Below are positions 16,354 through 63,874 of a DNA stretch of 64,000 nucleotides, piece after piece (within the stretch, counting starts at the first letter, position 1; each line of letters opens with the position of its first letter). The stretch is from Promethearchaeota archaeon (lineage in GTDB: Archaea; Asgardarchaeota; Thorarchaeia; Thorarchaeales; Thorarchaeaceae). A program made the translations under genes and the position numbers. The stretch is from contig WJMJ01000071.1 in assembly GCA_014728035.1 (NCBI GenBank), forward strand, positions 133,253 to 197,252, given 5' to 3'. The notes below the pieces were generated by a model. That model saw nothing but the letters and a program-made list of their open reading frames with translations. It made no database searches and was not told the DNA's origin.

Positions 16354-17043
16354 ATGGTTAAGACAGTGAATAGTGTATCCAATTATAATATTCTGCTGTC
16401 TATCCATGACGTTTCTCCAATCTATGAGGATGCGATTATATCACTATATGATAGCTTATCAGATATTGGGATTTCCAGCTTTACTCTGTTGATCCCTCCA
16501 TTCTATCAGCTAAAAGGCTCTAATGTATTTGAAGAAAAGGACATCTTTGTAGATTATTTACGATCACTTGACTTGGAAATCTCTTTACATGGATATTCTC
16601 ACACAACAAAGTCTGGTGGATTAGATGAGTTCAAGAAGCTCACTGCTAAAAGGTCTGCTTCTCGTCTGAAATCTGGCATCGCCATGATTCGGAGAGCTTT
16701 TGGCATTAGACCCTTCGGATTCATACCTCCAGCTTGGCAAGCAACTAAAACCGTATTGAACCAAGTAAAAGATGTTGGACTCAAATATTGTGTTATTGGA
16801 AACAATATCCATGATTTTAAAAGTATGAAGGTCTTCTCAACAGCAGACTATGTCATAAGCCAAGGTGATGGGAATACATCCTTTTCAGATATTATGCTAG
16901 AATTAGAGCTTGGAGGGCCTCTTCAGATATCAATTCACCCTCTTGACTTCAAGTCTAGCTATATTTTTGTAGCTCTCAGAGATGCGCTTGATAGATTAGA
17001 TTACACTATTTGTGGATATCGCGACTATTTGCGAAAAATATAA
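16354..17043 (+). CDS. Polysaccharide deacetylase family protein (DUF2334-like)
   Basis: SIHDVSP, LHGYSH, GFIPPAW, ISIHP. Confidence 0.8.
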   Translation: MVKTVNSVSNYNILLSIHDVSPIYEDAIISLYDSLSDIGISSFTLLIPPFYQLKGSNVFEEKDIFVDYLRSLDLEISLHGYSHTTKSGGLDEFKKLTAKRSASRLKSGIAMIRRAFGIRPFGFIPPAWQATKTVLNQVKDVGLKYCVIGNNIHDFKSMKVFSTADYVISQGDGNTSFSDIMLELELGGPLQISIHPLDFKSSYIFVALRDALDRLDYTICGYRDYLRKI

Positions 17044-17388
17044 CCTTTTTTCCTCTCTAGTAGATTCATTCGCTTATTCATCCAACGTAAGTATATGAAT
17101 AAGTTTGTAAGCACATTATGACAGCAAACATAGAGACAATTTGATACTCTGAAAGACCTATCAATCCGGCTTGAGGGGATTGTTGGAAATTGAATGGATG
17201 TGAATGATGTAGTTATTCATAATAACCTTCGTGCGAAAAATCGAAATGATTGACTAGCTATCGAATCGATTCATCAGCCAATCATTGTTATGGGTCGGGA
17301 GAATTGTTCTCACAGAATAGATGAAATGAATTTAGGTTCATTCTATTCCTTGACGAGTATCAATCTTAGATTCGGAGGAAAACGAAAC

Positions 17389-20300
17389 ATGAGGAGAGCA
17401 AGTCTTGTTGGACTTCTTATTATGCTGATATTTGTAATTCCAGTTCCTAGTATTACTACTCCAGCTGGCACTAATTATTCCGAGTCAAAAACCATTCAAG
17501 GTACTGACTCATGGTCTGTTGCAGATACAACCTTTACAACTGGCACAGGTATGCCACTTTCATATTCAATGATTGGGACCGCTACAAACACGTATGACGG
17601 TTCTATGATCATTGATTCTACAAGTCCTAGTACTACCACCGTATCATTGGATGATGGCTGGACTGGTTCTGGTCTTGAAACAACCGTTGATACTATGGTG
17701 ATTACAGATAGTGATCAGCTCCTCAATGGTGATATGAATTCCTACCACACCGAGAAATTCCTTGGTACCAGCTTTAATTCTGAAGATGTTCTCATCCCCG
17801 ATAATTGGGCACTCACTAAAACAGATAATTCAGGAACTGGTCATCCTCATCATGGTGTATTTGAGTTCAATAGCTTTTCTAGTTCAGGATATGAAAGCAC
17901 TCAAGGATTCCGGTTCGATGCGAATTGGGGTGCAAGTACAAGTCTCTCCTCGACTGATAGTATCTACATCGGTCAGATGATATCTGCACCTTATCGTGAA
18001 CTTGTTTCTGCTGAAGTTCAATTCTACTATAGAGTTGACTCCGTTTCTGACTTGAATGACCAAGTTTACCTTGTCCTACGTTTTGGTAATTATGAATATG
18101 AGCTTCATGCTTTTGCTTCAGGTTCAACAACCGATACTTGGTTATCAGCTACAGTACCAATTCCAATTTCAACAATAGATGCAATTTCTCTCCCTGATTC
18201 TATTCTATTGGAAATTGGACTTGCGACAGATCTTTCAGGCTCTCAAGCATCTGCTCGAGATGCTTATGTATATGTTGATAGTATCTCCGTTGATTTGGAT
18301 GTTCGTCCGTTCCCAGAACAAGTAGGTCTTACTGTAAATGGCACTGATGTTGTTGGTTCCGAGATGTATAGTATCTCACCTTTCTTACCAGACGGTGAGA
18401 ATCGTGATGGTTACGATCCTGATGGTTCAGGATTCGATTTAGACGGTTATAACAATGATGCAGTCTTATCTGTTGGAACTTGGGGAACCTCATGGAGCGA
18501 CACTAGTCCGTACCAGATTGGCTTACAGTTTCCATTGAATATACCTTCAGGTGCAGCAATTACCCAAGCCTATATTGAAGTGGAATCTGCTGGAGTTGGT
18601 ACAATGAGCGATATGCGGCTTTATCTTGCAAGTCGTGATAGTTCATTAAATGATATATCCGCTTTTACGAATGGTGGTGCCCAACTTGAGGATAGGCTGA
18701 CCTTTATCGATACTAGCGTAGACTGGTCTCCTTCAGCTTGGAGTTATGGAGAAAGGTATTACTCTCCTGATTTTTCTGCTCTTCTTCAAAAGGGTATCAA
18801 TGAGAATGGTTGGAATGCTGGAGACCATGTCGCAATTATGCTAGATTTCATGTATGCATCATCATATCAGTCATACAACGACATCAAGGGCTCATATGGA
18901 TCATTCTTTGATGCTCATGAACTGGCAAGGATATACGTAGAGTATATCATTCCAAATGCTGAGGATACCGTTGCAAATCTTGCTTACAAAAAAGACATTA
19001 CAATTAATTCAGCTCGAGTAGCTGCGACTCTAACTGACTTCCCAGTCCTAGTTGATATTTACGACTCGGACCTGAAAACCGATGCACAGAAGGATGGCGA
19101 TGATATTGCCTTCGTTCAAAATGGTGTTCAACTAGCTCACGAAATCGAATATTATGATCACTACTACAATTCAACCCATGCTCATCTTATCGCTTGGGTT
19201 AATGTTCCAACTCTATCTGGCTCATCTGATACTATTATTGAGATGCATTATGGAGACTCCGAGGTTGGAAATCTTCAGAATGCTGCAGGGGTTTGGAATA
19301 CAGGATACGAGTCCGTCTGGCATATGAACAATAACTTGACTGCTGGACAACTTATCGATAGTACTGAGAACAACTATGATGGTGTATCATTTGACATGGC
19401 TGCAAGAAACGTGACAGATGGGCAGATTGATGGTGCTTACGAATTTGCTGGTAGCAGTGAACGTGCAATCGTTGGTCAAATGGATACTGATTCATGGGGT
19501 GCGATTACCCTGGAGAGTTGGTTTTATCTTGATACGGATGGCGATTACAGAATTATATCAAAAGAGGTTGGCACAGGTGGAGGACCTCACATCTTTATGA
19601 TTGGTGTGGATAACACTCAAACACTTAAAGTCAGAATCTATACGGATGGAGGCAATACCGACTGGAACTCGCCTGATGATGCTATTAGTCTGAGCACATG
19701 GCATCATTTGGTAGTAACATTTGACCAATCCCTTTCTTCAAATGAAGTTCGAGTCTATCTTGATGGTTCTTACTACTACGGGGAAGGAAACAGCGGTTCA
19801 ACTTTTGATGACTCAAATACAGAAGTAACAATTGGGGACAATAGTGAGGGTACTCGGAGTTTTGATGGAATAATTGACGAAGTAAGGATATCAAATACCG
19901 CAAGGTCATCCAATTGGATTCTCACCCAATTCCGAAATCAAGACAGCCCTAATTCATTTCTCTCTGTTGGCTCGGAACAGACCAACAAGGATAGCTATGG
20001 AAGTACTGAGACTGCATCTCTGGAATTTGCTACATCTTCTACAGACCCGGTTTCACTGGAAACTACTGCTTCTCTAACTATTTCTGGGAGCGGACAGAGT
20101 CTAGATGAAAATATGAACACCGGAACCACTTTTGTTGTGGACAATGGTACAGAATATGTGAATTGGACTGCTAATGTCCTGATTTCTCCCCCACCAAATG
20201 CAGCTTCTATGAACGCCTACATAGACTATCCTCAGACTGAATGGAAACCTACTTCGGTCACTAACCCCGTAGGGCAATCCAAGACGTACGGAACCGATTG

Positions 20301-23300
20301 GACTTATACTGGTGGCAAACTTACGATATTTGCTGATGCAGTGGATATATGGGGAGTTTGGGTGATTGAATTCGAAAGTATGAATTATATTCTCGATGCA
20401 AAAATTGGGCATCAAAGTCAGACGCTTGGCAATACTGATATCTTCGATATCAATGATGTTTTCGAGATGCAAGCAACCACTCCTTGGATAACTGACTCAC
20501 GAGTTGGTCTAGTGTTGACAGATCCAACTGGTTCTCAGTGGCATACTGATTATGCAACTACTACTGGCACTCCCACTCATCAGATTCCCTCATTCCAGTA
20601 CCGTAAATCAATTACAGTTTCTTCATCCGAAGTAGATGCTGACCTTACTAATTACCCAATGCTTGTAGATATACTCGACTCAGATTTGTACGACACTTCA
20701 AAAGTCCAATCAGATGGTGATGATATTGTTTTTGTATCTGCAAATGGTGATATCCTTCCTCATGAGATTGAATTTTGGAATCAAGATGTTGGAGGTAGTC
20801 AAGCCCAACTTGTAGCATGGGTTAAGACCAATCTATCCAGTACCTCGGACACGACGATATACATGTACTATGGCAATCCATTTGTTGGGCCGCAAGAACA
20901 ACCTGATGATGTATGGACTGAAGGTCACGCTGCTGTTTGGCATTTAGGTGAGAATACGATAGATGAGGAAACAACGGCAATTCATTACGACTCTACTACT
21001 GGAGGTTATGACGGTAATCAAATTGGTAACGTAAGAGCAGATGGTATATCTGGTTACTCTCAGTCATTTGCCACAGATGATTGGATTGAGATCAATGATA
21101 CTGAAAACTTAGACCCATCTGATGATGTGACAATCTCTGGTTGGTTCTATTTGAGTAGTTCTTTCAGCTCTACTTCACCAACGACTCAGGTAATTATGGA
21201 GAAGTACATCTCTAATGATGACGATATGCTAATTGCACTTGTGGGAACCGATTATGGCAATAGTGTGCCTGATGGTAGTCTTGTATTCAAAGTAGAAAAT
21301 TCTGATGGCGGCTATATGTACAAATACAGTCAGAGAACTGCTTGGTCTCCAGGTTGGTATCATTTTGCTTGTATTTTGGACTCTGATAATCCTGTAAACA
21401 ATAAGATTTTCGTCAATGGTGCTGATAACACAAATGCCGGATATCTTGGTAGTAGCTCATATAATTCTCTCTCATTCTCAGGACACTGGGGTATTGGTGG
21501 GAGATATTCCGACACCCAGATTCCAGGTGGAGAGGGTTTCTTCAATGGACGAATTGACCAAGTTGAAGTTTCAAATGGTATTCGTTCAGATGCTTGGATT
21601 GCTGCTCAGTATAGTAATCTCTATACATCCAGTACTTTTCGAACTATTGGAAGTGAACAGAGTAGGACTTCTCCCGATTTGACCCTTACAAAAACTATAG
21701 ACTCTACTGCTCCTGCTGGTGTATGGACAGCTTCTGTTTACTACAATGATACTGGTGTGTCTGTGACTAATGCTACCGGTTTAATAGAGAGAGAATTCAT
21801 CGTCCAGCATGATACAACTCTCACTATAGTTGACCCATACGATGCTGTATCAGATAGAACTTCACTACGATTAGCTGGGGATTTACTTGAAGTAGAGCTC
21901 AATCTCACTGATGATATTACTTCGGGGAGTGTCACTGGAGCTACAGTCACTATGAATTGGACTCAGAGTAGCTCTCCTATTGAGATTACTCTTGACGATT
22001 ATGGCGATGGTTCATACGGAGTTGTCCTGAATACATCCGATTTAGGAACTGCTCAACGTTGGAGGATTAATATTGCTTCATACCATCCCTATTACAATAA
22101 TGCGACAGAATACTTTGATTTAGATTTATACCATGAGACGAAATTGACTTATCTAAATGTGACATCAACACCAATTGGTTTTGATTCAACAGCTACCCTT
22201 GTCTATTGGGATGTCTATGATGATGCACCTATCACAGGAGCGACAATTGCCTTTGAAAACGGAACTACAATCACAACAGATGCAGAAGGGAATGGATACT
22301 ATAACATCTCTCTCGATTTGAATTATCTCGGACTTGGCAATCACTGGTTCGTATTTGACGCTTCTAAATCTGATTCTTTTATGGCTGATGCTGATACAAA
22401 TGTCACATTTACTGTCAGGAAACACTATACTTCTGTTTCAGTACAGGGTGATTTTGTTACTCCGTTTGGGTTCAATACGAACGTGACTGTTGTCTTGATT
22501 GATATGGACACTGGAACCTCTTTATCAACAAGTGATGTTGCATCACTCAGTTTTAATTCAGTAAGTTATTCAGCACAAATTATTAATTTACCCGGATCTT
22601 TCGACCAGACCCTCACTACAAACACATGGGGTTTGGGCGATGAAACGGTTACCTTGTCGGTTTCTCTAGTAGATTCGATTTACTTCACTCCAGATGATTA
22701 TGCTTTTACAGTAACCATACGCAAGCACTACACAACCGTGTCTGTTGTGGGAGATTTTCTTTCACCTTATGGATTCAATACATCAGTAACTATCATCCTA
22801 ACTGATAGTGATACTGGGACTGCTGTAGCTTCCACAAACGTAAATTCCTTCACATTTACTCCTGCAGCAAATGACCCAGAAAGCGAATCAAATCCCTCTG
22901 ATTACATATATGAGATGGATACAGACGGATGGGTTGTGGGTATAGATACAGTCACTCTTACCGTAGATATGACTGGGTCAGACTACTTTGATCCAAATTC
23001 ATTTGATTTTGATATTGAGATTCGGAAGCATTACACTTCTGTTACAATTAGTGGTGATTTATCAACACCTTGGGGTCAAAATACAACTCTAACAATTTCA
23101 TTGATTGATACTGATCTGGGTACTTCTGTTACTGTTGGAAATGTGGCATCGTTTACATTCGATTCTGCTATCCCTTCATCTGAGGGTGAATCAAATCCAT
23201 CAGACTATATCTATGAGTTGGATACAGATGGTTGGTCAGTAGGTATAGAAACTGTAACACTTACTGTCGATATGACAGGTTCAGATTACTTTGATCCTGA

Positions 23301-26300
23301 TTCTTACAACTTCGATATCCAGATTAGAAACCATTACACTGCTGTGACTGTAAAAGGTAACATGACTACACCAGCTGGAATGGATACAGACCTTATTGTT
23401 GAAGTTGTAGACCTTGATACTGGTACGGTTGTTTCCGTTCTGGATGTTAATTCATTCTCCATGTCTTGGACTGGAGACTCTCAGAACTTTGATGGTACAA
23501 GTTATAGTGTAACTTTACTCACTAACACATGGGCATTAGGCACTGAAACTGTAACAATCACAGTAGATATGACAGGTTCGGATTACTTTGATCCCGATAC
23601 ATATGATTTTGATATCACCATTAGAAAACACTTTACGTCAGTAAGTGTTTCTGGAGATTATATTACTCCCTATGGTGAAACAACTGATGTCACCATAATC
23701 ATCTATGATTCTGATACTGGCACTCAGCTTGCTGCAGGGGCTGCTTCTTGGTTCAATTTCACATGGACTGGTGGATTCTACGAACAGAATCCTGCATCGT
23801 CATTAACTGATACATTGCCAACCGATTCATGGTCGGTGAGTACTGTTACTGTTACATTGGAGGTCTCAATGAGCGGATCCAACTATATGGACCCTGATTT
23901 CTTCTCATTTGATGTGACCATTAGAAAACACTATACTTCAGTAACTGTCACTGGTGATTTGACTTCTCCCTACGGGAATACAACTGACCTCACTGTCAAG
24001 ATTACCGACTTGGATACTGGTACCCTTGTAACATACAATAATGTTGATTGGCTCAATTTCACTTGGGCTACAAGTTTCCATGAAATAACAACAGTAAGTA
24101 CTTTTGATATTACAATCGCTACAGATTCTTGGGTTGTAGGAGCTACTTCAGTAACGCTGAGTGTATCAATGGGTTCTTCGGATTATTTCAATCCAACTGA
24201 TTATACATTTGACATTACAATACACAGTATTGAAACTGATTTATCAAACGAATTCAATGATATGATTTTTCCAAATGGTGATGATTTCAATATCATTCTC
24301 CGTTTGAATATTACTGAACAAGGACAATACTATGGGAATCCCCTTACAGGACTAACTGCAACCAATTTCACAGTTAAGAATTCCACTGGGTCTTATGTAT
24401 TCACATTGGAGCATCTCAATGATGGTAGATATAATTTGACCATAGCAGGAGGGTATTTCCCCGAGGGCCAGTACACGATTTATGTCGCTTTTGTATCAAC
24501 TGATTCAAGATATAGATCTTCAAGTATCACCATCGTTTTCGAATATCGTCCTGCAAGAAGTGAGCTTTCATCTGGAGACCGCACTGTTACAACTCCTTAT
24601 CAAACTGACTACACTGTCACACTCACATTCACAGATATTGATCGTGATGAAGGTATCCTGGATGCTACAATTACCGCTGAAGGTGTAGAAATATACGGCC
24701 AGCAAAATCTTGGAAATGGACTTTATAGAATCACGGTGAACATCACTAGTCTAAGCAAAGGGACACACTACTATAATTTGACTGCTGATGCTGATGGTTA
24801 TGAAAATCAGACTCTCAGCTTCACTGTCGTTATTAGAATTGCATATACCTACGCAATTCCATCTACTGGAGCATTAGATATTCCTGTGGGCAATTCTCCA
24901 GTTTTCTATGTTGAATACTGGGATATAGACCGTGACATGGCAATTACAGGAGCAACAGTTGACCATAATTGGACAGAAACAATATCTGTCACTATGGTTG
25001 GTGAAGAGTATAAAATAACATTTACAACCTCTGACTCAGTAGATCTTGGTACTTATCTTGTGATGTTCAATTTCTCAAAAGGAGAGAACTACCAATTCGG
25101 GCTATTCAATCTTACAGTTGTTGTCCGAACTCACAATACAGACTTTCGTTTGGTTAGCGCCGTGGAGCCAACCGCATATAATGGGGAGATTGAAATCTCA
25201 GTATTTTATGGGGACTTGGATACTGCTGGTGCTGGAATTGTATCCAATCTGATTAGTTACGAAGTTTGGAATGCTAGCATGCAGGTATCTGCAACGATGG
25301 TTAACGATACAACATTGGGTGCGGGGTATTACTTGATTACCATATCCGCATCACAATTTAATGGATTAGGCATTCAAGACTTCACAGTATATTTCAATTG
25401 GACTGGATCTGTGTATAAATTCCAAAATAAGACAGTAGGAGCTTCTGCAAATATCGTAGGAGAAGATTCACGGTACACATTGATTCTCTCATCAGAACCT
25501 ACACCTTATCTCACTAATATGAGCTACACATTCTTCTATTCAAGGAGTAATGGTGATGGAATCATTAATGATACAGGTGATGTTCATATCAATGTAGTAT
25601 TTACAGGGGAGTCAGTAGACCTATCCAAAGTTGATATCTGGGAAGTTGACCAAACAAATAGCCCTGGAAATTACTCTGTTCGATTTAATACATCAATTTT
25701 CTCTCATACTGGACTAATCTACATGCGAGTATACATCAATTGGTCATATGGAGTTGCACCATTCTATACTAATCGAACTGACACAATTTCTGTAAGAGTA
25801 TTAGCACGAGATACATTGGTATCATTAGTACCAGCTTCAGCAACTCCATACTCTGAAATTGCTTCATTTACATTCAATTATGAGGATGCACTGATTGACG
25901 AATCGATAGAAAACTCGACATCATTGAACATCTCTCTAAGTCTAAGTGAATACACTTTATCATATGAATTGACAACTCGAACCTTTACTGTTGAGTTCAA
26001 TACAACTCAATTTGGAGGTCTCGGTCAGCAATCTTTCACACTTGATATTGTGTGGTATGGCTCTCCATTCTATCAGAATAAAACTGGTAGAACCGTATTC
26101 GTAACCGTCACGACACGTGACACGGTGTTGGATTATCAATCTCCTGCACCTACACCTTACATGGACAATGTAACATTTACTGTTACTTGGACTGATGTAA
26201 CGGGTAGTTCTACAAGTGGTATCACTGGAGCTAATGTAACCCTGTATTATCTTGGAGCTGAGATTTCAAGTAGTTATTACAAGGTGACGGAGGGAACTAA

Positions 26301-29300
26301 TGGCGAATATACTATTGAACTAAATACAACATATTTCCTCACACCTGGCTCATATGTAATTACAGCTAACATGACATCATTAGAAATATACTATGATTCA
26401 GAAGATGCTGATAGAAGTTTGACGATAACAAAAAGAGTTACATCTCTGACTTCAGATCCGTTCGACGCAGTCCCCTACAACTCATCTTTCACGGTTATCC
26501 TCTACTATCAAGACACACTTACCCTATCAGATATTGCAAACAATTCTGATGTCTTCTTTACTATCGAAACTGCAGGATCTTGGCTCTACACAATCAACTG
26601 GATTGAAAGTAAAGGGTACTATGAACTTATTATCGAAACATATAATCAACCTTCATTGGAGATTGGTGTTGAATATTCACTTCAATTAAATATGAGCTTC
26701 TCTTACGAGAGCCCATTCTATAATTGGGATGATACGACCATCACCTTTGAGCTGAGGTATCGTGAATCCTCTCTAGAACGAGAAACTTCTCCTGTTCAGA
26801 CATCATATCTCGATTGGATTGATTTCATAGTATACTATGGTGATGCAGATGGGGCAACTGGAATTCCAGGTGCAACCATAACAGTGGAGGTTGGAGGCAG
26901 CCCGTTAACTCTAGTAACTGAATATACATATACAGATGATGCTGACGGATACTATTCTATATCAGTTGCATCTGATGCATTGGGCGGGATTGGAAGTTTT
27001 GGAATAGATGTTTGGGCTAACTGGAGCATGATCGCTCCATTCCATGATAATGCTTCTCTAAGTCTCAGCTTAACTGTTATCAGAAGGCCAACTGACGTGA
27101 CAATCGTATCTACACCAAGTCGTACTAGTTACCTTGAGAACATTACATTTGTAATCGAGCTAACAGATCTTGGATATGGAACAACTATATCCTCTGTTAC
27201 TAAGAATTTACTCCATATCTACAATGGTGTTTCTGAGTTGGCCTCTTCAGATTTTGATTTCACCGATATCGGCTCTAATCAGTTCGAGATTAGTATTGAT
27301 TCAACAGTCATTACTTCGGTCTTGGTTTCAAATCTTCAATTGAATATATCAATTGATTGGCCAGACTCCCCCAACTATTATCGTGATGATTCGACATTAG
27401 TTCGAGTAACAATAATAGCACGAACAACTGCTCTATCGATAGAACCTCCAACAAACACTGCTTATGGAGAAAATGCATCACTTCAATTAGGTTACATCGA
27501 CACAACCACTGTTGACACATTGATTGAGAATGCAAATAATCTATCAATATCAACCAATCTGACCGAAATTCCTCAAATCACGTACAATGCAGGCACAAAG
27601 CTATTCTCGATTTCATTAGACACATCCCAGTTTGGAAGCATTGGCAAATTTGTATTTCATATCAATGTTACTTGGGTCGGATCACCATACTATGCAAATC
27701 GAACATTTCAACAAATTACGGTGACCATTACCTTGCGACAAAGTCAGCTTGATTATCAGGCTCCTGCACCTACTCCTTATGGTGATAATGTTTCCTTTAG
27801 TATCACTTACGAGGACATTGCCGGCTCAGTAGATATTGGAATTGATGATGCAGAGATTACATTGTATAATGGAACAACTCAGATTCCATTAAACTACTAC
27901 CAAGTAGAATTACAAGGCAATGGACTCTTTAACTTCGAATTCTATTCTGGATTCTTTGAGACTCCTGGTTACTATAACATAAATGCATCATTTGTCTACA
28001 ACGGAACCAATTATGTGGCAGATGCATCAGCGATTAGAATTCTTAATGTCAGATATCGCACCACTTTGGTTTCATCAGAACCTGTGGGAAGTATTGGTTA
28101 TGGAACCACCATGGAGATAATTCTCTATTACCAGGATATGCTTACTCTGGATAACATCGGAAATCTAACACCTCAGACAACTCTAACTGTTTTGAATGGT
28201 ACTGATTGGGACTTTACGATTACTTGGCAAGAAGTAACAGGAACATACCGTCTTCTGGTTGAAACTGCTGATAAAGTTCTACCTGTGGGAGAAACACAGG
28301 TATTGTATCTAAACATGTCATACCAGTTTGATTCACCATACTATTACTGGGATACAATCTATGTGTCTTTCACAGTTCGTAATCGTGTTTCGAGCCTTGA
28401 TGTTCAGGATGCACCTGTTCCAGCTGCTTATCTGGAATATGCGGAGTTCACCATGTATTATTGGGATGTTGATGTGACTCAGGGTATTGCAGGCGCTACA
28501 ATAAGCATTGAAACAACGACCACATTCTCAGAAGGGTCTGATTTCTTTGTAAGTGAGGGTTCCCCTGGTGTTTACAATATCCAATTGAATACTACAGCTC
28601 TACCTTCTTTGGGTGTATTCCAAGTTAAGATAACTGCAATTTGGAATGGGTCTGCTCCTTATCACAATAATGCTTCTCGGAACGTAACTGTTTCAGTAAC
28701 GCAGCGAGATGCCGAGGTTGAAATTATATCTCCTCCATCACAAACGAGATTCCTTGATAATCTCACTTTCACCTTTACATATACTGATATCCTCTCTAGC
28801 AGTTCGATTTCAGTAAGCAGTTCTGATGTTTTGATATATTCAGAAGGACTTCTCTTAGGTGCAAATGAATATGTGATAACACCATCTGGGTCTAACTTTT
28901 TCGTTTCAATCAATTCGACAGTGTTAGGAAGCACTTTAGTTAGCAACTTGAATTTGACAATCCTTATTGACTGGAATGATAGCACATCTCCATATTATAC
29001 AGATGATCAGACTTCACTGAGAGTATCCACAGTTGGAAGAACGATGTCAGTTACATTTGGCCAAATTGAATCCGTTCCAATTTTTGATAATCTTACAATT
29101 GGTTTCTATTTGGAGGATAGTGCAAAGGAAACACCAATATCCAATGCGATAATTTACTTTGATTGCCAGACAGTATCTCTTCTTGAAGGAGTATCTTATG
29201 TTCTTACAGAAGGTACAGGGTCTCTTGAGGGATACTATAACCTAACTGTACTTACTTCCTATCTTCCAGATGTGGGTGATTATAATTTCGATCTCACAAT

Positions 29301-32300
29301 TCATTGGAATGCGACAAATCAACCGTTCTATGCCAATTTGAGTACTATTACTCTTACAGGTTCGATTGATCTGATTTGGACAAGTTTACAATCTGATTTA
29401 CCCTCTCCTTCCTCAGTTGAAATCACTGATAGTGTAAATGTGACGGTATACTTCAGAGATTTGGACCATGGACAGATTGGGATTAACGCTGCTACTATTT
29501 TTGTATCCTATCTCGATACTGGCCTTGTACCTAGTAATCTCGCAATAACCTCCTTGCCCAATGGTGTTTACAATATATCATTCAGCACAATTGACTTGGA
29601 TTCTACTGGAAGTTATGCTTTGAACATTACTGCACAACGAACTTACTACCGAACTTCAGTAGTTCAGCCCAGTTTTACAGTTACAGTCATCCGTACGATT
29701 TTAACACCTCTTGAAGATACTATCCAACTTAGTTGGACGGAAAATGCAAATATCACTGTGGAATATGAGAATCTACTTAATGGGAATCTAACCGCAGGTG
29801 CAACACTTACTTTCGAATGGGCTGGGGGAACTGGATTTCTAACTGAAATCGGTTCTACTGGAGTGTACTCTGCAAATATTGACACCTCACTCGCAAACTC
29901 AGGTACACGTGTCATCAAAGTGTATGCTCAAAAGGACAAATTCGCGAATGCAGTTACAACTATCACGTTGATTGTCCTTACTCTACCATCAGATATGATT
30001 CCTATCATTCCAGATGTGGCATCCTTGAATCTTCCACGTGGTGCTTCGGTTCCAATCACAGTATATCTGAATGACACCTTCAATGGAGTACCCATTAATG
30101 ACACATACGTGCAGAATATCTACGTTTCATTTCAGGGTGTAGATTATCCAATGACATTCAATACCAGTCTTGGATATTATACTGCAACGATACCTGGTTC
30201 AGCGACTGAATTGCCTATTACTTTCTACAGTGTGAATATTTTAGCTGAATTCATCAACTACAATCCAGCTCCCTACCAGTTCAAGATTAATCTTCAACAA
30301 AGTAGAACTGAATTGAAGCTATCCGGAGAAACAACAAAGACCATCAATGCCTATTATTCCGACCTTGTAACTTTTGAGGTGAATTTCACTGCTACTGATC
30401 TCGGTTTCCAGATTACAGAAGCTAATGGAACAGCTGTTATCTGGGACCTTTCTGAGGTAGGTATCCAAGGGAATTTCACACATGTTGCTGATGGTATTTG
30501 GCAGGCTGTATTCAATACAACTCTTGCTAATTATGGGAGTTGGGGTATTACCATTCTGGGACAACCAGGTGACCCAGTCCTTAGTGATTCGATTACAACT
30601 TTGACACTTACTATCAAGTTGATTCCCACACAAGCAACATCTTCTCTAGCTCCTACTGTAGTATGGGGTTGGGAAGGAAATGTTTCATTCTACTACGAAG
30701 ACACATGGAATGGAGGCGGAATTCCTGCAGCGAGTGCTATTGTTTCATGGGGTCCATATTCAGGTATAAATGCTACAGACATTGGAAATGGATTTTATTC
30801 CGTTTTTATCAACACAACAATTCTTACACCTGGTGCAAGATATCCAGTATCTATTTCCTTTACTAAACCAAATTATGTAGTTGGAACATCATCTTTGAAC
30901 GTAGAAGTTACTGAAGTACCCACTGAGCTAATTATTGATTCACCTGTGCAAAACAGGGTCGCAGAGGATAATCCTCAGAATCTCATTGTGCCCATGGGTG
31001 ATACAATAGAAGTAATGATTCTGTATAATGATACTGATACTACTGAAGGTTATATAGGTGGTATATCCGGTGCAAGTCTTCTTGATGCAAGTGTATTCCG
31101 AGGAGTTACCTTCGATGGAGGCCGTGACTTCTCACTAATCCCAATGGAGGACGGTTGGTACAAATTGGTGTTTGACACTCTAGATGAGTCAATTTACCAG
31201 ATTTCAAATGGCACTCCAGTCATAGAAGATGGATATTACCGTTATACGATAGTCTTGAAGCTAACGAATTACCAGACATCTGAGGTAACTATACGTTTCA
31301 GAATTATCGAGGTACCAACTTCAGTATCATCCGAACCTGAAGAAACTTCATTCAGTCTTATTCATGGCGTTTCCAGAGTGGTACGAGTGCAGTTCAATGA
31401 TACCTGGCATGGTATTGGAATCACTGACGCATCTCTTACAATTTCCAGTGATACTCCATCAGTAACCATTGTAGGATGGATTGAAGAAGGTGATGGATGG
31501 TATTCAATAGAGCTCTATGCAGAGTCTGTAGGAGTTCCATCAGCCATCCAGATAGTTCTGAGTAGCCCCTATCACACAAATGGAACGGCCCAGTTCAGAG
31601 TGTCAGTATTGATGAACGAATTCGATGTATTGGTTGATAATAGTCTTAGAATCGGGTTCCCAATCAGTCTATTCGTCATCCTGATATTGGGCATGTATGT
31701 GAAAGTCTGGAGTGTTCCAAAACGTATTAGACAGATAAACGGACAAATCAAAGCAATGGAGAAAGGAAAGCTACCTAAACCAATCTCTGAAGTTCGTGAA
31801 CGTCGTGGTGTGATTGCGGATCTTTGGACTGATACGCTCAAAGGACTTGAGTTAACTAGGTCGATTAGTGATATACCAGAACATTCAGTACCTGTTGAAG
31901 TGCCAGAAATGGGCACACTTCTTATTCAATTACAACTTCTCACTCATTTGAACCAAGAAGAACTTGACGAATTCAAGTCTGATATCTCTAAGATGAGAAT
32001 GAGTGAACAAGCTGCATTTGTGAAAGAAGTGATTCATCAAGAAGCTATAAGGGCCGCACGTCGTGAACACACTACAGTTGAGGATATCCTCGATAAAATC
32101 GCAAGGAAGGCACAAGAAATAGCTCCTGGTGGCACGCCTGTTACCGAACCAGAGAAAGTCATAGACACTGTCTTTCCTATTACAGAAAAAACTGAAGAAA
32201 TAGATGAATTAACACCGGATGAAACCAAAACCCCTGATGAAACTCCACCAGTTGTGGACGATAGCAGATGGGATATAGGATCGGGTGATAAACTCAGTGA

Positions 32301-32445
32301 TTTCGAATTGGACGAGCTTCGAAAGGAGCTGAAACGAAGGGGTGTCGAAGACCATGAAATCGATAACCTAATCGATCAAGCGAAGGAATTACCACGAGAG
32401 GCTATAGATGCCTTGCTTGATAGTATTGGTAACGGAAGCGAATAG
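17389..32445 (+). CDS. Giant (~5,018 aa) single-pass surface protein: signal peptide, two DUF2341-like/LamG lectin modules, many Ig-like repeats, TM helix, ~240-aa cytoplasmic tail
   Basis: Start MRRASLVGLLIMLIF at 17389 with SD GGAGG. LamG motifs (WHHLVVTFD, FDGIIDEVRIS, FNGRIDQVEVS). Abundant N-x-S/T sequons. TM IGFPISLFVILILGMYVKVW at about 31651-31710. Confidence 0.9.
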   Translation: MRRASLVGLLIMLIFVIPVPSITTPAGTNYSESKTIQGTDSWSVADTTFTTGTGMPLSYSMIGTATNTYDGSMIIDSTSPSTTTVSLDDGWTGSGLETTVDTMVITDSDQLLNGDMNSYHTEKFLGTSFNSEDVLIPDNWALTKTDNSGTGHPHHGVFEFNSFSSSGYESTQGFRFDANWGASTSLSSTDSIYIGQMISAPYRELVSAEVQFYYRVDSVSDLNDQVYLVLRFGNYEYELHAFASGSTTDTWLSATVPIPISTIDAISLPDSILLEIGLATDLSGSQASARDAYVYVDSISVDLDVRPFPEQVGLTVNGTDVVGSEMYSISPFLPDGENRDGYDPDGSGFDLDGYNNDAVLSVGTWGTSWSDTSPYQIGLQFPLNIPSGAAITQAYIEVESAGVGTMSDMRLYLASRDSSLNDISAFTNGGAQLEDRLTFIDTSVDWSPSAWSYGERYYSPDFSALLQKGINENGWNAGDHVAIMLDFMYASSYQSYNDIKGSYGSFFDAHELARIYVEYIIPNAEDTVANLAYKKDITINSARVAATLTDFPVLVDIYDSDLKTDAQKDGDDIAFVQNGVQLAHEIEYYDHYYNSTHAHLIAWVNVPTLSGSSDTIIEMHYGDSEVGNLQNAAGVWNTGYESVWHMNNNLTAGQLIDSTENNYDGVSFDMAARNVTDGQIDGAYEFAGSSERAIVGQMDTDSWGAITLESWFYLDTDGDYRIISKEVGTGGGPHIFMIGVDNTQTLKVRIYTDGGNTDWNSPDDAISLSTWHHLVVTFDQSLSSNEVRVYLDGSYYYGEGNSGSTFDDSNTEVTIGDNSEGTRSFDGIIDEVRISNTARSSNWILTQFRNQDSPNSFLSVGSEQTNKDSYGSTETASLEFATSSTDPVSLETTASLTISGSGQSLDENMNTGTTFVVDNGTEYVNWTANVLISPPPNAASMNAYIDYPQTEWKPTSVTNPVGQSKTYGTDWTYTGGKLTIFADAVDIWGVWVIEFESMNYILDAKIGHQSQTLGNTDIFDINDVFEMQATTPWITDSRVGLVLTDPTGSQWHTDYATTTGTPTHQIPSFQYRKSITVSSSEVDADLTNYPMLVDILDSDLYDTSKVQSDGDDIVFVSANGDILPHEIEFWNQDVGGSQAQLVAWVKTNLSSTSDTTIYMYYGNPFVGPQEQPDDVWTEGHAAVWHLGENTIDEETTAIHYDSTTGGYDGNQIGNVRADGISGYSQSFATDDWIEINDTENLDPSDDVTISGWFYLSSSFSSTSPTTQVIMEKYISNDDDMLIALVGTDYGNSVPDGSLVFKVENSDGGYMYKYSQRTAWSPGWYHFACILDSDNPVNNKIFVNGADNTNAGYLGSSSYNSLSFSGHWGIGGRYSDTQIPGGEGFFNGRIDQVEVSNGIRSDAWIAAQYSNLYTSSTFRTIGSEQSRTSPDLTLTKTIDSTAPAGVWTASVYYNDTGVSVTNATGLIEREFIVQHDTTLTIVDPYDAVSDRTSLRLAGDLLEVELNLTDDITSGSVTGATVTMNWTQSSSPIEITLDDYGDGSYGVVLNTSDLGTAQRWRINIASYHPYYNNATEYFDLDLYHETKLTYLNVTSTPIGFDSTATLVYWDVYDDAPITGATIAFENGTTITTDAEGNGYYNISLDLNYLGLGNHWFVFDASKSDSFMADADTNVTFTVRKHYTSVSVQGDFVTPFGFNTNVTVVLIDMDTGTSLSTSDVASLSFNSVSYSAQIINLPGSFDQTLTTNTWGLGDETVTLSVSLVDSIYFTPDDYAFTVTIRKHYTTVSVVGDFLSPYGFNTSVTIILTDSDTGTAVASTNVNSFTFTPAANDPESESNPSDYIYEMDTDGWVVGIDTVTLTVDMTGSDYFDPNSFDFDIEIRKHYTSVTISGDLSTPWGQNTTLTISLIDTDLGTSVTVGNVASFTFDSAIPSSEGESNPSDYIYELDTDGWSVGIETVTLTVDMTGSDYFDPDSYNFDIQIRNHYTAVTVKGNMTTPAGMDTDLIVEVVDLDTGTVVSVLDVNSFSMSWTGDSQNFDGTSYSVTLLTNTWALGTETVTITVDMTGSDYFDPDTYDFDITIRKHFTSVSVSGDYITPYGETTDVTIIIYDSDTGTQLAAGAASWFNFTWTGGFYEQNPASSLTDTLPTDSWSVSTVTVTLEVSMSGSNYMDPDFFSFDVTIRKHYTSVTVTGDLTSPYGNTTDLTVKITDLDTGTLVTYNNVDWLNFTWATSFHEITTVSTFDITIATDSWVVGATSVTLSVSMGSSDYFNPTDYTFDITIHSIETDLSNEFNDMIFPNGDDFNIILRLNITEQGQYYGNPLTGLTATNFTVKNSTGSYVFTLEHLNDGRYNLTIAGGYFPEGQYTIYVAFVSTDSRYRSSSITIVFEYRPARSELSSGDRTVTTPYQTDYTVTLTFTDIDRDEGILDATITAEGVEIYGQQNLGNGLYRITVNITSLSKGTHYYNLTADADGYENQTLSFTVVIRIAYTYAIPSTGALDIPVGNSPVFYVEYWDIDRDMAITGATVDHNWTETISVTMVGEEYKITFTTSDSVDLGTYLVMFNFSKGENYQFGLFNLTVVVRTHNTDFRLVSAVEPTAYNGEIEISVFYGDLDTAGAGIVSNLISYEVWNASMQVSATMVNDTTLGAGYYLITISASQFNGLGIQDFTVYFNWTGSVYKFQNKTVGASANIVGEDSRYTLILSSEPTPYLTNMSYTFFYSRSNGDGIINDTGDVHINVVFTGESVDLSKVDIWEVDQTNSPGNYSVRFNTSIFSHTGLIYMRVYINWSYGVAPFYTNRTDTISVRVLARDTLVSLVPASATPYSEIASFTFNYEDALIDESIENSTSLNISLSLSEYTLSYELTTRTFTVEFNTTQFGGLGQQSFTLDIVWYGSPFYQNKTGRTVFVTVTTRDTVLDYQSPAPTPYMDNVTFTVTWTDVTGSSTSGITGANVTLYYLGAEISSSYYKVTEGTNGEYTIELNTTYFLTPGSYVITANMTSLEIYYDSEDADRSLTITKRVTSLTSDPFDAVPYNSSFTVILYYQDTLTLSDIANNSDVFFTIETAGSWLYTINWIESKGYYELIIETYNQPSLEIGVEYSLQLNMSFSYESPFYNWDDTTITFELRYRESSLERETSPVQTSYLDWIDFIVYYGDADGATGIPGATITVEVGGSPLTLVTEYTYTDDADGYYSISVASDALGGIGSFGIDVWANWSMIAPFHDNASLSLSLTVIRRPTDVTIVSTPSRTSYLENITFVIELTDLGYGTTISSVTKNLLHIYNGVSELASSDFDFTDIGSNQFEISIDSTVITSVLVSNLQLNISIDWPDSPNYYRDDSTLVRVTIIARTTALSIEPPTNTAYGENASLQLGYIDTTTVDTLIENANNLSISTNLTEIPQITYNAGTKLFSISLDTSQFGSIGKFVFHINVTWVGSPYYANRTFQQITVTITLRQSQLDYQAPAPTPYGDNVSFSITYEDIAGSVDIGIDDAEITLYNGTTQIPLNYYQVELQGNGLFNFEFYSGFFETPGYYNINASFVYNGTNYVADASAIRILNVRYRTTLVSSEPVGSIGYGTTMEIILYYQDMLTLDNIGNLTPQTTLTVLNGTDWDFTITWQEVTGTYRLLVETADKVLPVGETQVLYLNMSYQFDSPYYYWDTIYVSFTVRNRVSSLDVQDAPVPAAYLEYAEFTMYYWDVDVTQGIAGATISIETTTTFSEGSDFFVSEGSPGVYNIQLNTTALPSLGVFQVKITAIWNGSAPYHNNASRNVTVSVTQRDAEVEIISPPSQTRFLDNLTFTFTYTDILSSSSISVSSSDVLIYSEGLLLGANEYVITPSGSNFFVSINSTVLGSTLVSNLNLTILIDWNDSTSPYYTDDQTSLRVSTVGRTMSVTFGQIESVPIFDNLTIGFYLEDSAKETPISNAIIYFDCQTVSLLEGVSYVLTEGTGSLEGYYNLTVLTSYLPDVGDYNFDLTIHWNATNQPFYANLSTITLTGSIDLIWTSLQSDLPSPSSVEITDSVNVTVYFRDLDHGQIGINAATIFVSYLDTGLVPSNLAITSLPNGVYNISFSTIDLDSTGSYALNITAQRTYYRTSVVQPSFTVTVIRTILTPLEDTIQLSWTENANITVEYENLLNGNLTAGATLTFEWAGGTGFLTEIGSTGVYSANIDTSLANSGTRVIKVYAQKDKFANAVTTITLIVLTLPSDMIPIIPDVASLNLPRGASVPITVYLNDTFNGVPINDTYVQNIYVSFQGVDYPMTFNTSLGYYTATIPGSATELPITFYSVNILAEFINYNPAPYQFKINLQQSRTELKLSGETTKTINAYYSDLVTFEVNFTATDLGFQITEANGTAVIWDLSEVGIQGNFTHVADGIWQAVFNTTLANYGSWGITILGQPGDPVLSDSITTLTLTIKLIPTQATSSLAPTVVWGWEGNVSFYYEDTWNGGGIPAASAIVSWGPYSGINATDIGNGFYSVFINTTILTPGARYPVSISFTKPNYVVGTSSLNVEVTEVPTELIIDSPVQNRVAEDNPQNLIVPMGDTIEVMILYNDTDTTEGYIGGISGASLLDASVFRGVTFDGGRDFSLIPMEDGWYKLVFDTLDESIYQISNGTPVIEDGYYRYTIVLKLTNYQTSEVTIRFRIIEVPTSVSSEPEETSFSLIHGVSRVVRVQFNDTWHGIGITDASLTISSDTPSVTIVGWIEEGDGWYSIELYAESVGVPSAIQIVLSSPYHTNGTAQFRVSVLMNEFDVLVDNSLRIGFPISLFVILILGMYVKVWSVPKRIRQINGQIKAMEKGKLPKPISEVRERRGVIADLWTDTLKGLELTRSISDIPEHSVPVEVPEMGTLLIQLQLLTHLNQEELDEFKSDISKMRMSEQAAFVKEVIHQEAIRAARREHTTVEDILDKIARKAQEIAPGGTPVTEPEKVIDTVFPITEKTEEIDELTPDETKTPDETPPVVDDSRWDIGSGDKLSDFELDELRKELKRRGVEDHEIDNLIDQAKELPREAIDALLDSIGNGSE
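22417..24225 (+). repeat. Six tandem ~100-aa Ig-like repeats inside the giant gene
   Basis: R(K/N)H(Y/F)T anchors at 22417, 22720, 23023, 23326, 23623 and 23923 (spacings 303, 303, 303, 297, 300 nt). Shared VDMTGSDYFDP motif. Confidence 0.85.
25807..29040 (+). repeat. Higher-order duplication of a ~540-aa, five-domain block inside the giant gene
   Basis: LDYQSPAPTPY (~26130) vs LDYQAPAPTPY (~27750); LYYQD...LNMS...SP.Y.WD occurs twice; SRTSYLENITF vs SQTRFLDNLTF. Offset about 1,620 nt. Confidence 0.75.
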
Positions 32446-61116: not shown

Positions 61117-61827
61117 ATGAAGGGAAGAATATCTCAAATATTCGGATTTGTTTTAATATTAGTAGGATTTGCTCTACTACCTATTACATATCAAAGTGCG
61201 ACATTATTTGTTACTGGTTCGGATGTACTGCTCTATACGTTGACATCATGGGGGGTTATTGGTTTTCCAGGAGTTCTACTTGGTCTATTTCTTCTAGTTA
61301 AAGGGACTCGTGAAGCTAAAGTTGGTGACATTACTGGAAGTATCATTAAGATAGTTCAAAGTGAAGGGCGAATTGGAGTGGAAGCATTGTCACGTGAACT
61401 TGATGTAGAAGAACAGCTAGTTGTCGAAGCTGCAGAGAAACTCTCTAAGAAACGTCTTCCATTAGTCTATCTTGATTCGCAATCTAGTGAACTTGTCAGT
61501 CCTAATGCGGTGAGTTTGAAGGAGAGTGTTCTTCATCTATTATTTGCCCAAAGACGGATGAGCTTTCATCAGATTTCACAAGTGACTAATGCAACTGAAC
61601 CACAAATCATAGAAGCATTGAAAGAACTCTCCGAGGAGGGAAAATTCCGTGGAGTAATTGATGAAAACTCGGGGATAGTGTATACATCAGAAGCTGTTTC
61701 GGAAATGGCGAGAGCAGTAACGGTATGTCCCAATTGTGCTGGCAAGCTACCAAACCCGATTCTATCCGGCGAGGAAGAAACTTGTCCCTACTGTGGTCAT
61801 GTGATAACTAATCGTCTTCTTCAATAG
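61117..61827 (+). CDS. Membrane protein: 2 TM, two PCI-like winged helices, C-terminal zinc ribbon
   Basis: GRIGVEALSRELDV and LSEEGKFRGVIDENSGIV (PCI-like). CPNC...CPYCG. Confidence 0.7.
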   Translation: MKGRISQIFGFVLILVGFALLPITYQSATLFVTGSDVLLYTLTSWGVIGFPGVLLGLFLLVKGTREAKVGDITGSIIKIVQSEGRIGVEALSRELDVEEQLVVEAAEKLSKKRLPLVYLDSQSSELVSPNAVSLKESVLHLLFAQRRMSFHQISQVTNATEPQIIEALKELSEEGKFRGVIDENSGIVYTSEAVSEMARAVTVCPNCAGKLPNPILSGEEETCPYCGHVITNRLLQ

Positions 61828-63034: not shown

Positions 63035-63874
63035 TTAACCTAATTGTTTCTCAATCTCGCTAATGATAGCTTCCATTTCCGCTTTGGAGAGACCCTTTGC
63101 TTGCGCTACCATGACATCAATATCCTCCTCAGCCAATCCAAGGGATTTCAATCGAGTACGCATATCTTCAAGATCCTCAGGTGTCGCTTCTACCTGCTCC
63201 TCTTCTGAAACTCCTTTCTCCTTCTCCTCAAGGTCTTTCGCTCTACGTGCACGTTCTTGCTTGATGACTTCCATGACAAACCCTGGCCTCTCACTTGGTT
63301 TCATGGTGAACAAATCCTGACGGAACACATCAACATCTTCCTCTGTGAGTCCGGTAATTTCAGCTAATTCGTCTAGTAGCGAATCGAGTTCGGGTATCTT
63401 CAGGTCAATCGTATGAGTTGGAATCTCATCAATCGGTTTAGCTACTCCCATTGGGAGTAATTCAGTATTGATGATTTCCTGCAATATCTCATCTCTACCT
63501 TGAACTGGAGCGGGTTCTGGAACATTCCCTTTTCCAACAGATTTTATCATCTTATTGAGCCATCGCACCATTTTTGGTACACTGTATATCCTTACATAGT
63601 ACAATGCTCCAAGTAACAGGGCAATTATCCCGATACTAAATCCGTACGTCATGGTTGTCAAAACTGGGTCTCCAGCTACTTGTTGTACAATGACTGTCAG
63701 AATTATCTCTTGGTCATCATAGTTGTTACCGAGAGATGCACTGATAATAATATCAAACTCTCCCTCTATCGTTGGGGTGAATGAAACTATGTATTGACCT
63801 GGTTCTGAAGATTCTACGATGGTATAGTCTTCATCACCGATTATTCCCTCTTCTTGGGTAAGGGTAGCAATCAG
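63035..63874 (-). CDS. C-terminal part of a second single-pass surface protein (Ig-like domain, TM, conserved cytoplasmic tail); frame interrupted upstream
   Basis: The frame is open from 63874 (LIATLTQEEG...PGQYIVSFTP...YDDQEIILTV) through TM YGFSIGIIALLLGALYY. The tail is homologous to that of the 17389-32445 protein. In-frame TAG at 63875-77. Confidence 0.75.
   Translation of the reverse strand: MIATLTQEEGIIGDEDYTIVESSEPGQYIVSFTPTIEGEFDIIISASLGNNYDDQEIILTVIVQQVAGDPVLTTMTYGFSIGIIALLLGALYYVRIYSVPKMVRWLNKMIKSVGKGNVPEPAPVQGRDEILQEIINTELLPMGVAKPIDEIPTHTIDLKIPELDSLLDELAEITGLTEEDVDVFRQDLFTMKPSERPGFVMEVIKQERARRAKDLEEKEKGVSEEEQVEATPEDLEDMRTRLKSLGLAEEDIDVMVAQAKGLSKAEMEAIISEIEKQLG

Follow-up and report, generated by a model that had tools for sequence, protein, structure and literature searches.

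A conserved cytoplasmic tail on paralogous giant surface proteins of Asgard archaea

Two genes in the window, the 64-kb stretch of Thorarchaeaceae DNA analysed here, end in similar sequences, which raises the question of whether surface proteins of this archaeon share a tail inside the cell and what such a tail may do there. Gene A lies in a 5,051-codon open reading frame (17290-32445, from an ORF scan of the window) and, with its likely start at Met34, encodes a type-I surface protein of 5,018 amino acids (17389-32445, forward strand). Its ectodomain (17389-31650) consists of a signal peptide, a tip of two DUF2341+LamG modules (Pfam Laminin_G_3, E 2e-29; DUF2341, E 1.5e-11) and a long stalk of repeats, putatively Ig-like from weak Pfam matches and the repeat pattern. 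The hydropathy profile shows a signal-like hydrophobic segment at the N-terminus and then a single transmembrane helix near the C-terminus (31651-31701), past which there are 7 Lys/Arg versus 1 Asp/Glu; the ectodomain contains 105 N-glycosylation sequons versus 1 in the tail. By standard topology rules these features (signal-like N-terminus, one transmembrane helix, basic excess past it, sequons before it) place the tail of A in the cytoplasm, as the sequence-only reading of this locus had proposed. An ortholog of A is present in G128, a Thorarchaeota genome of the same genus (matching record SHMX01), with 80% identity over 5,028 columns. The gene that directly precedes A, likewise on the forward strand, is DUF2334/polysaccharide-deacetylase-like (16354-17043).

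Gene B (63035-63861, reverse strand) was taken to be a second surface protein of the same kind, but it is a remnant of 274 codons, cut at about 63861 at the contig end. The remnant encodes the last Ig-like segment, the transmembrane helix (63593-63646) and a tail with a juxtamembrane module (63446-63586) and two three-helix modules, M (63242-63394) and C (63041-63184). It is 80% identical to residues 3119-3397 of an ortholog of at least 3,397 amino acids in G128, and this similarity extends right up to the interrupting sequence, which consists of the initial 139 bp of a multicopy element of 190 bp recognised by BLAST against the genome (63862-64000, forward strand). The upstream portion of B, approximately 3,100 codons, is absent from the assembly (contig ends and tblastn searched). 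Compared with the G128 ortholog (pN 0.12, pS 0.79) the remnant is as conserved as A; thus, either the element was inserted recently or the interruption arose in the assembly. The 190-bp element has 45 BLAST matches in the genome (31 at 95% identity or more, 32 at contig ends), 14 of them full length (e.g. G000:C121:79511-79700 and C95:23198-23388); it is non-coding, with no obvious terminal inverted repeats or target duplication and no match in Rfam. It lies behind many contig breaks in the genome, and a relative with 71% identity is present in G128. On the A side of the remnant, 61117-61827 encodes a 236-aa protein with weak PCI and winged-helix scores, below the cut-offs.

The C-termini of A and B align by BLASTP with 26% identity and 50% positives over 266 columns (E 2e-27), and all three pairs of conserved blocks quoted in the sequence-only reading were found, establishing that the tail is common to both proteins. 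The claim that it joins different ectodomains is overstated, because the stalks are homologous and the genes paralogous (the intact B ortholog is 25% identical to the stalk of A over 2,331 aa); it is the tips that differ. The genome has four such tails, those of A, B and a tandem pair on contig C169; all members share the stalk, but the tip of A consists of DUF2341+LamG modules, that of one C169 protein is an NHL propeller, and in the other no tip was detected. In a tree of the tails, A and B belong to separate subfamilies divided by a long, fully supported branch, so that their duplication must be old. A and B come from an old family of Asgard surface proteins that are N-glycosylated, cross the membrane once and share one chassis of variable tip, Ig-like stalk, transmembrane helix and conserved tail. 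Archaeal S-layer and adhesin proteins had been said mostly to have little or no cytoplasmic part; among 47 large single-pass proteins of this genome, long tails are indeed a minority, but not rare (13 with a tail of at least 100 aa, 33 with fewer than 50 aa). In a further member (G000:C77:1-4023, L207), the juxtamembrane module leads into a long, acidic tail of low complexity that lacks the three-helix module. The genome also contains an open reading frame of 9,987 codons (G000:C28:148-30111) and another of 2,125 codons with about 44 predicted transmembrane segments (G000:C130:21007-27384).

The tail of B was modelled by AlphaFold (pLDDT 94, pTM 0.52) as the transmembrane helix, two helices (residues 30-43 and 56-71) with a 12-residue connector between them, an extended segment, three-helix module M, a linker and three-helix module C. 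In A, based on this model of its paralog and on column conservation, the juxtamembrane module (31708-31848) is a helix-loop-helix with the motif P..R..KG..R, comprising a proline, a basic amphipathic helix, Lys-Gly, the 12-aa connector, an arginine and the second helix. It is followed by the extended segment and module M (31873-32049), an extra helix that occurs only in the long class together with a variable acidic linker rich in proline and threonine (32050-32292), and the C-terminal module C, homologous to M (32293-32430). A single 48-aa module is thus present twice, as M and as C: the two match in a profile-profile comparison (E 1e-4), their cross-scores exceed those of reversed controls, and a joint model finds both. 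Identity to the G128 ortholog of A is 94% in the juxtamembrane module, 88% in M, 85% in C, 80% in the ectodomain and 45% in the linker, which bears out the earlier description of conserved blocks separated by a variable acidic linker. Values of dN follow the same order (0.08-0.11 in the modules, 0.14 in the ectodomain, 0.46 in the linker) and reflect purifying selection. Ranked by identity, the juxtamembrane module falls within the top tenth of windows, a level that 9 of the 94 ectodomain windows also reach. Among approximately 298 sequences from different lineages its near-invariant columns are the proline (293), two arginines (275 and 287) and the glycine (237) with the lysine before it, and its helix 1 has a basic, amphipathic character (moment 0.65, net charge +4). 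In a coevolution analysis of 292 modules (Meff approximately 206), no pair exceeded z 3.4 and neither a parallel nor an antiparallel diagonal emerged, and a two-copy structure prediction of the transmembrane helix plus tail (residues 1-156) scored 0.00, which is no answer either way.

No characterised domain was found behind the tail, in agreement with the sequence-only reading: none of the Pfam and NCBIfam families attains its cut-off, a PDB sequence search gave nothing meaningful, the ESM Atlas gave no usable match, and Foldseek against the PDB found no match at E 0.001 for the whole tail or the juxtamembrane module. In VIA comparisons the whole tail matches generic bundles only (best Z 7.1), and the three-helix module matches small bundles in tied rows (Z 5-7, rmsd 2-3 Å over about 50-60 residues). 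As a bundle of approximately 50 aa it resembles known three-helix binding modules (the RecX helix-turn-helix, the Pex14 N-terminal domain, the X domain of paramyxovirus P, KIX and the protein A/GA domains), all matches being within the range expected of common helical bundles; Pfam scores for these and for UBA, SAM and MIT are weak and scattered, none at cut-off.

Among known domains, HAMP (PF00672; e.g. EnvZ and Af1503) resembles the juxtamembrane module in layout. If the module were a divergent HAMP, dimeric receptors would relay a signal from the stalk through the transmembrane helix and a four-helix bundle to a three-helix output. Like HAMP, it follows the membrane span directly, with proline, helix, a glycine (237 of approximately 298 sequences) that begins a connector of about 12-14 aa, and a second helix, and the hydrophobic spacing of helix 1 matches; the B module hits Pfam HAMP weakly (E 0.025-0.09) and the transmembrane-HAMP region of EnvZ at E 0.0085, and the profile-profile score of 14.6 exceeds those of 200 column shuffles. 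Against these similarities, the HHalign probability is 9-12%, the best PF00672 score is 15.3 bits versus a cut-off of 25, and Pfam HAMP matches 2 of 67 members even at E 0.5. The DExG motif of HAMP is replaced by the near-invariant arginine (287 sequences) and a hydrophobic residue, and glycine is not one of the five most frequent residues where the motif has its G. Helix 1 is strongly basic, and past helix 2 there are three-helix modules instead of a kinase, a chemoreceptor coiled coil or any enzymatic output. The module alone reaches a best VIA Z of 2.8 with HAMP not listed, a result that leaves HAMP possible. On account of the HHalign probability, the few matching members and the absent DExG, the module was not classified as HAMP, and signal relay of this kind seems rather improbable.

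Distribution across genomes distinguishes the whole tail from its membrane-side part. A model of the full tail built from four sequences finds it in 74 of 76 genomes of the Thorarchaeaceae-level family, and in 136 proteins among 1.84 billion representatives. An iterated model of the transmembrane helix plus juxtamembrane module finds matches in 213 of 301 Asgard genomes, usually several copies in each, and all named database matches to the module are Asgard. By families with partly inferred lineage names, the module is present in 68 of 68 and 7 of 7 genomes of two Loki-type families, 4 of 4 Odin, 6 of 6 Freya and 18 of 19 genomes of a probable Hermod family. It is scarce in Heimdallarchaeaceae (1 of 28) and in three more families read as Heimdallarchaeia, one so labelled and two assigned by inference (1 of 11, 1 of 21 and 0 of 11), and was found in none of 5 Borrarchaeum/Sif genomes. 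These near-zero counts in the large genomes of the Heimdall/Sif side indicate that the transmembrane helix, although part of the model, does not score by itself. The three lone Heimdall-side matches look Loki-type, lie on short contigs of 31-33% GC and are possibly misbinned. The scarcity in Heimdallarchaeia makes it probable that the juxtamembrane motif is not ancestral to eukaryotic adhesion receptors, which limits any evolutionary claim.

The modules of the tail also occur apart from the ectodomain. A 173-aa member encoded 3.5 kb before the window (G000:C37:129238-129756; L206:7239-7757) consists of the transmembrane helix, the juxtamembrane module and a helical domain and lacks an ectodomain; 68 of 77 Thorarchaeaceae-level genomes encode it, nearly always as a single copy, with a conserved start. 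It is often on the same contig as an A-type gene, some tens of kilobases upstream. Copies of the three-helix module number zero in most Loki members, one or two in Odin, two in most Thor and up to five in some, and the absence from most Loki members implies that this module cannot be essential throughout the family. It is reused in Loki membrane proteins that do not have the juxtamembrane motif. One of them is an Ig-stalk receptor (L228:1048-3120) whose tail combines a longin-like region (recognised by eye, with no Pfam match), a single three-helix module and TPR/MIT-like helices; another crosses the membrane once and has a Cys-rich finger, and a further one is a polytopic Zn-ribbon protein. 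Genes with the tail are often in tandem pairs or arrays in which the members of a pair belong to distinct subfamilies, and in several Loki genomes two units of transmembrane helix plus module are within one open frame.

The full-length paralogy of A and B accounts for part of the sharing, and with it the tail might be an inherited, reinforced membrane anchor that keeps giant stalks from being pulled out, having spread by duplication and needing no partner. Basic amphipathic helices bind acidic lipids on their own, and helix 1 may do so unaided. This passive role is nevertheless very unlikely, given the near-invariant proline, arginine, glycine and arginine across lineages, the member that has no ectodomain to hold, and the recurrence of three-helix modules in proteins otherwise unrelated to the family.

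A short motif shared by many otherwise variable proteins is also the pattern of sorting tags such as PGF-CTERM and PEP-CTERM. Accordingly, the juxtamembrane module could be a biogenesis or sorting signal, an inner-side counterpart of the CTERM tags that is read once by the machinery of insertion, glycosylation, trafficking or shedding; it is one short motif past the transmembrane helix on many paralogs with variable outer parts, and many Loki members have little else beyond it. Like PGF-CTERM/archaeosortase substrates and SlaB, these proteins have a sequon-rich ectodomain, a C-terminal transmembrane helix and basic residues past it. Known CTERM motifs precede the transmembrane helix and the tails are short, whereas here the conserved motif is past the helix in tails of 184-245 aa, Thor members having a folded tail of 185-400 aa; no NCBIfam CTERM family matches the tail proteins. 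A sorting tag would leave unexplained the ectodomain-less member and the folded, variably repeated three-helix modules, and is considered unlikely.

The reading preferred here, to which we give about an even chance, is that the tail is a putative common handle for assembly and docking, since its membrane-side part is present in most Asgard lineages, even in a protein without an outer part. Conservation of the near-invariant P, R, G and R and the low dN of the modules go far beyond the needs of a membrane anchor; against the handle, part of the sharing of the tail is plain paralogy. In the proposed mechanism, the near-invariant proline after the transmembrane helix would bend the chain and lay the basic amphipathic helix along the inner membrane face, and helix 1, the connector and helix 2 would join family members to one another or to a single common partner at the membrane. 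Through a flexible linker, one or more acidic three-helix modules may then recruit a cytoplasmic partner, with an avidity that would rise with copy number; the 173-aa protein could be an accessory subunit of such assemblies, and the outcome would be adhesin-like stalks clustered or positioned from inside the cell.

Concerning the partner, the cytoskeletal, trafficking or signalling connections suggested at first found no support, as no result of the analysis connects actin, ESCRT or GTPases with the tail. The neighbourhoods of the tail genes revealed no cytoplasmic gene that is conserved there. A STAND-like NTPase with HEAT repeats is encoded close to the C169 pair (G000:C169:68860-72126, L002) and lies near family genes in some other Thor genomes, though patchily; as a general partner it was rejected, since this query detected it in 5 of the 26 other family genomes. 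Cadherins and integrins, to which the two proteins had been likened, may serve as a working analogy: the type-I layout, repeat stalk, variable tip and conserved tail are similar, but there is no sequence match, Pfam assigns the ectodomains only LamG, DUF2341, NHL and weak Ig-like domains, no NPxY motif is present in the tail of A or B, and the family is hardly found in Heimdallarchaeia. A more specific form of the docking reading, that these are Asgard-specific adhesion receptors, independent of integrins and cadherins, in which giant-stalk hetero-oligomers with the accessory subunit assemble through the juxtamembrane module and the three-helix modules lead to Lokiactin, is at present improbable; if true, a Lokiactin-coupled tail system would provide the clutch that is missing for crawling and for the adhesion of protrusions.

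The tail is real, unannotated, widely conserved and cytoplasmic, and it is carried by a general kind of Asgard surface protein that is already known. Nerearchaeum marumarumayae LOKIASV2_19760 has a signal peptide, tens of beta-sandwich repeats and a membrane span in approximately 5,000 aa, and adhesin-like fibronectin-repeat proteins of this organism reach 5,416 aa (10.1101/2025.07.22.663070, accessible part). A shares with LOKIASV2_19760 the signal sequence, the Ig/fibronectin-like repeats and the membrane span, any role of A in adhesion being putative; unlike the present account, the description of that protein, in the accessible part of the report, covers the outside only and mentions no conserved cytoplasmic tail (10.1101/2025.07.22.663070). 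A literature search found no description of the tail reported here. L. ossiferum is described as having unordered, irregular surface proteins (PMC9834061, in part), and Asgard crawling as actin-dependent and requiring adhesion, with membrane proteins under-represented in a Lokiactin co-immunoprecipitation (10.1101/2025.11.30.690169, in part); the accessible parts of these reports identify no Asgard adhesion proteins (PMC9834061; 10.1101/2025.11.30.690169; 10.1101/2025.07.22.663070). Cultured Asgard archaea adhere and crawl with actin-filled protrusions, and the link from surface to cytoplasm is not named in the portions of the literature available. A tail that almost all Thor, Loki, Odin and Freya genomes encode on several of their surface proteins offers a definite bait with which to look for that link in cultured Lokiarchaeia, a class whose sampled genomes carry the motif, and the connection of Asgard surface proteins to the cell interior becomes a testable question.

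Several genes with unusual arrangements of these modules were also encountered. Two Loki frames of approximately 1,150 aa (L132 and L133; G222:C19 and G109:C84) encode two ectodomain-transmembrane-module units in series, an arrangement recurrent in many genomes of that family. Two soluble proteins of 185-191 aa (L262:88-663 and L263:792-1349; P0129 and P0119) end in a Thor-type M module; encoded on tiny contigs with small overlapping genes, they are possibly mobile-element or viral mimics. On a single contig (L261:44-1069, P0101), the tail lacks its transmembrane helix and is joined to a portion of a STAND/HEAT protein, through either rearrangement or misassembly.
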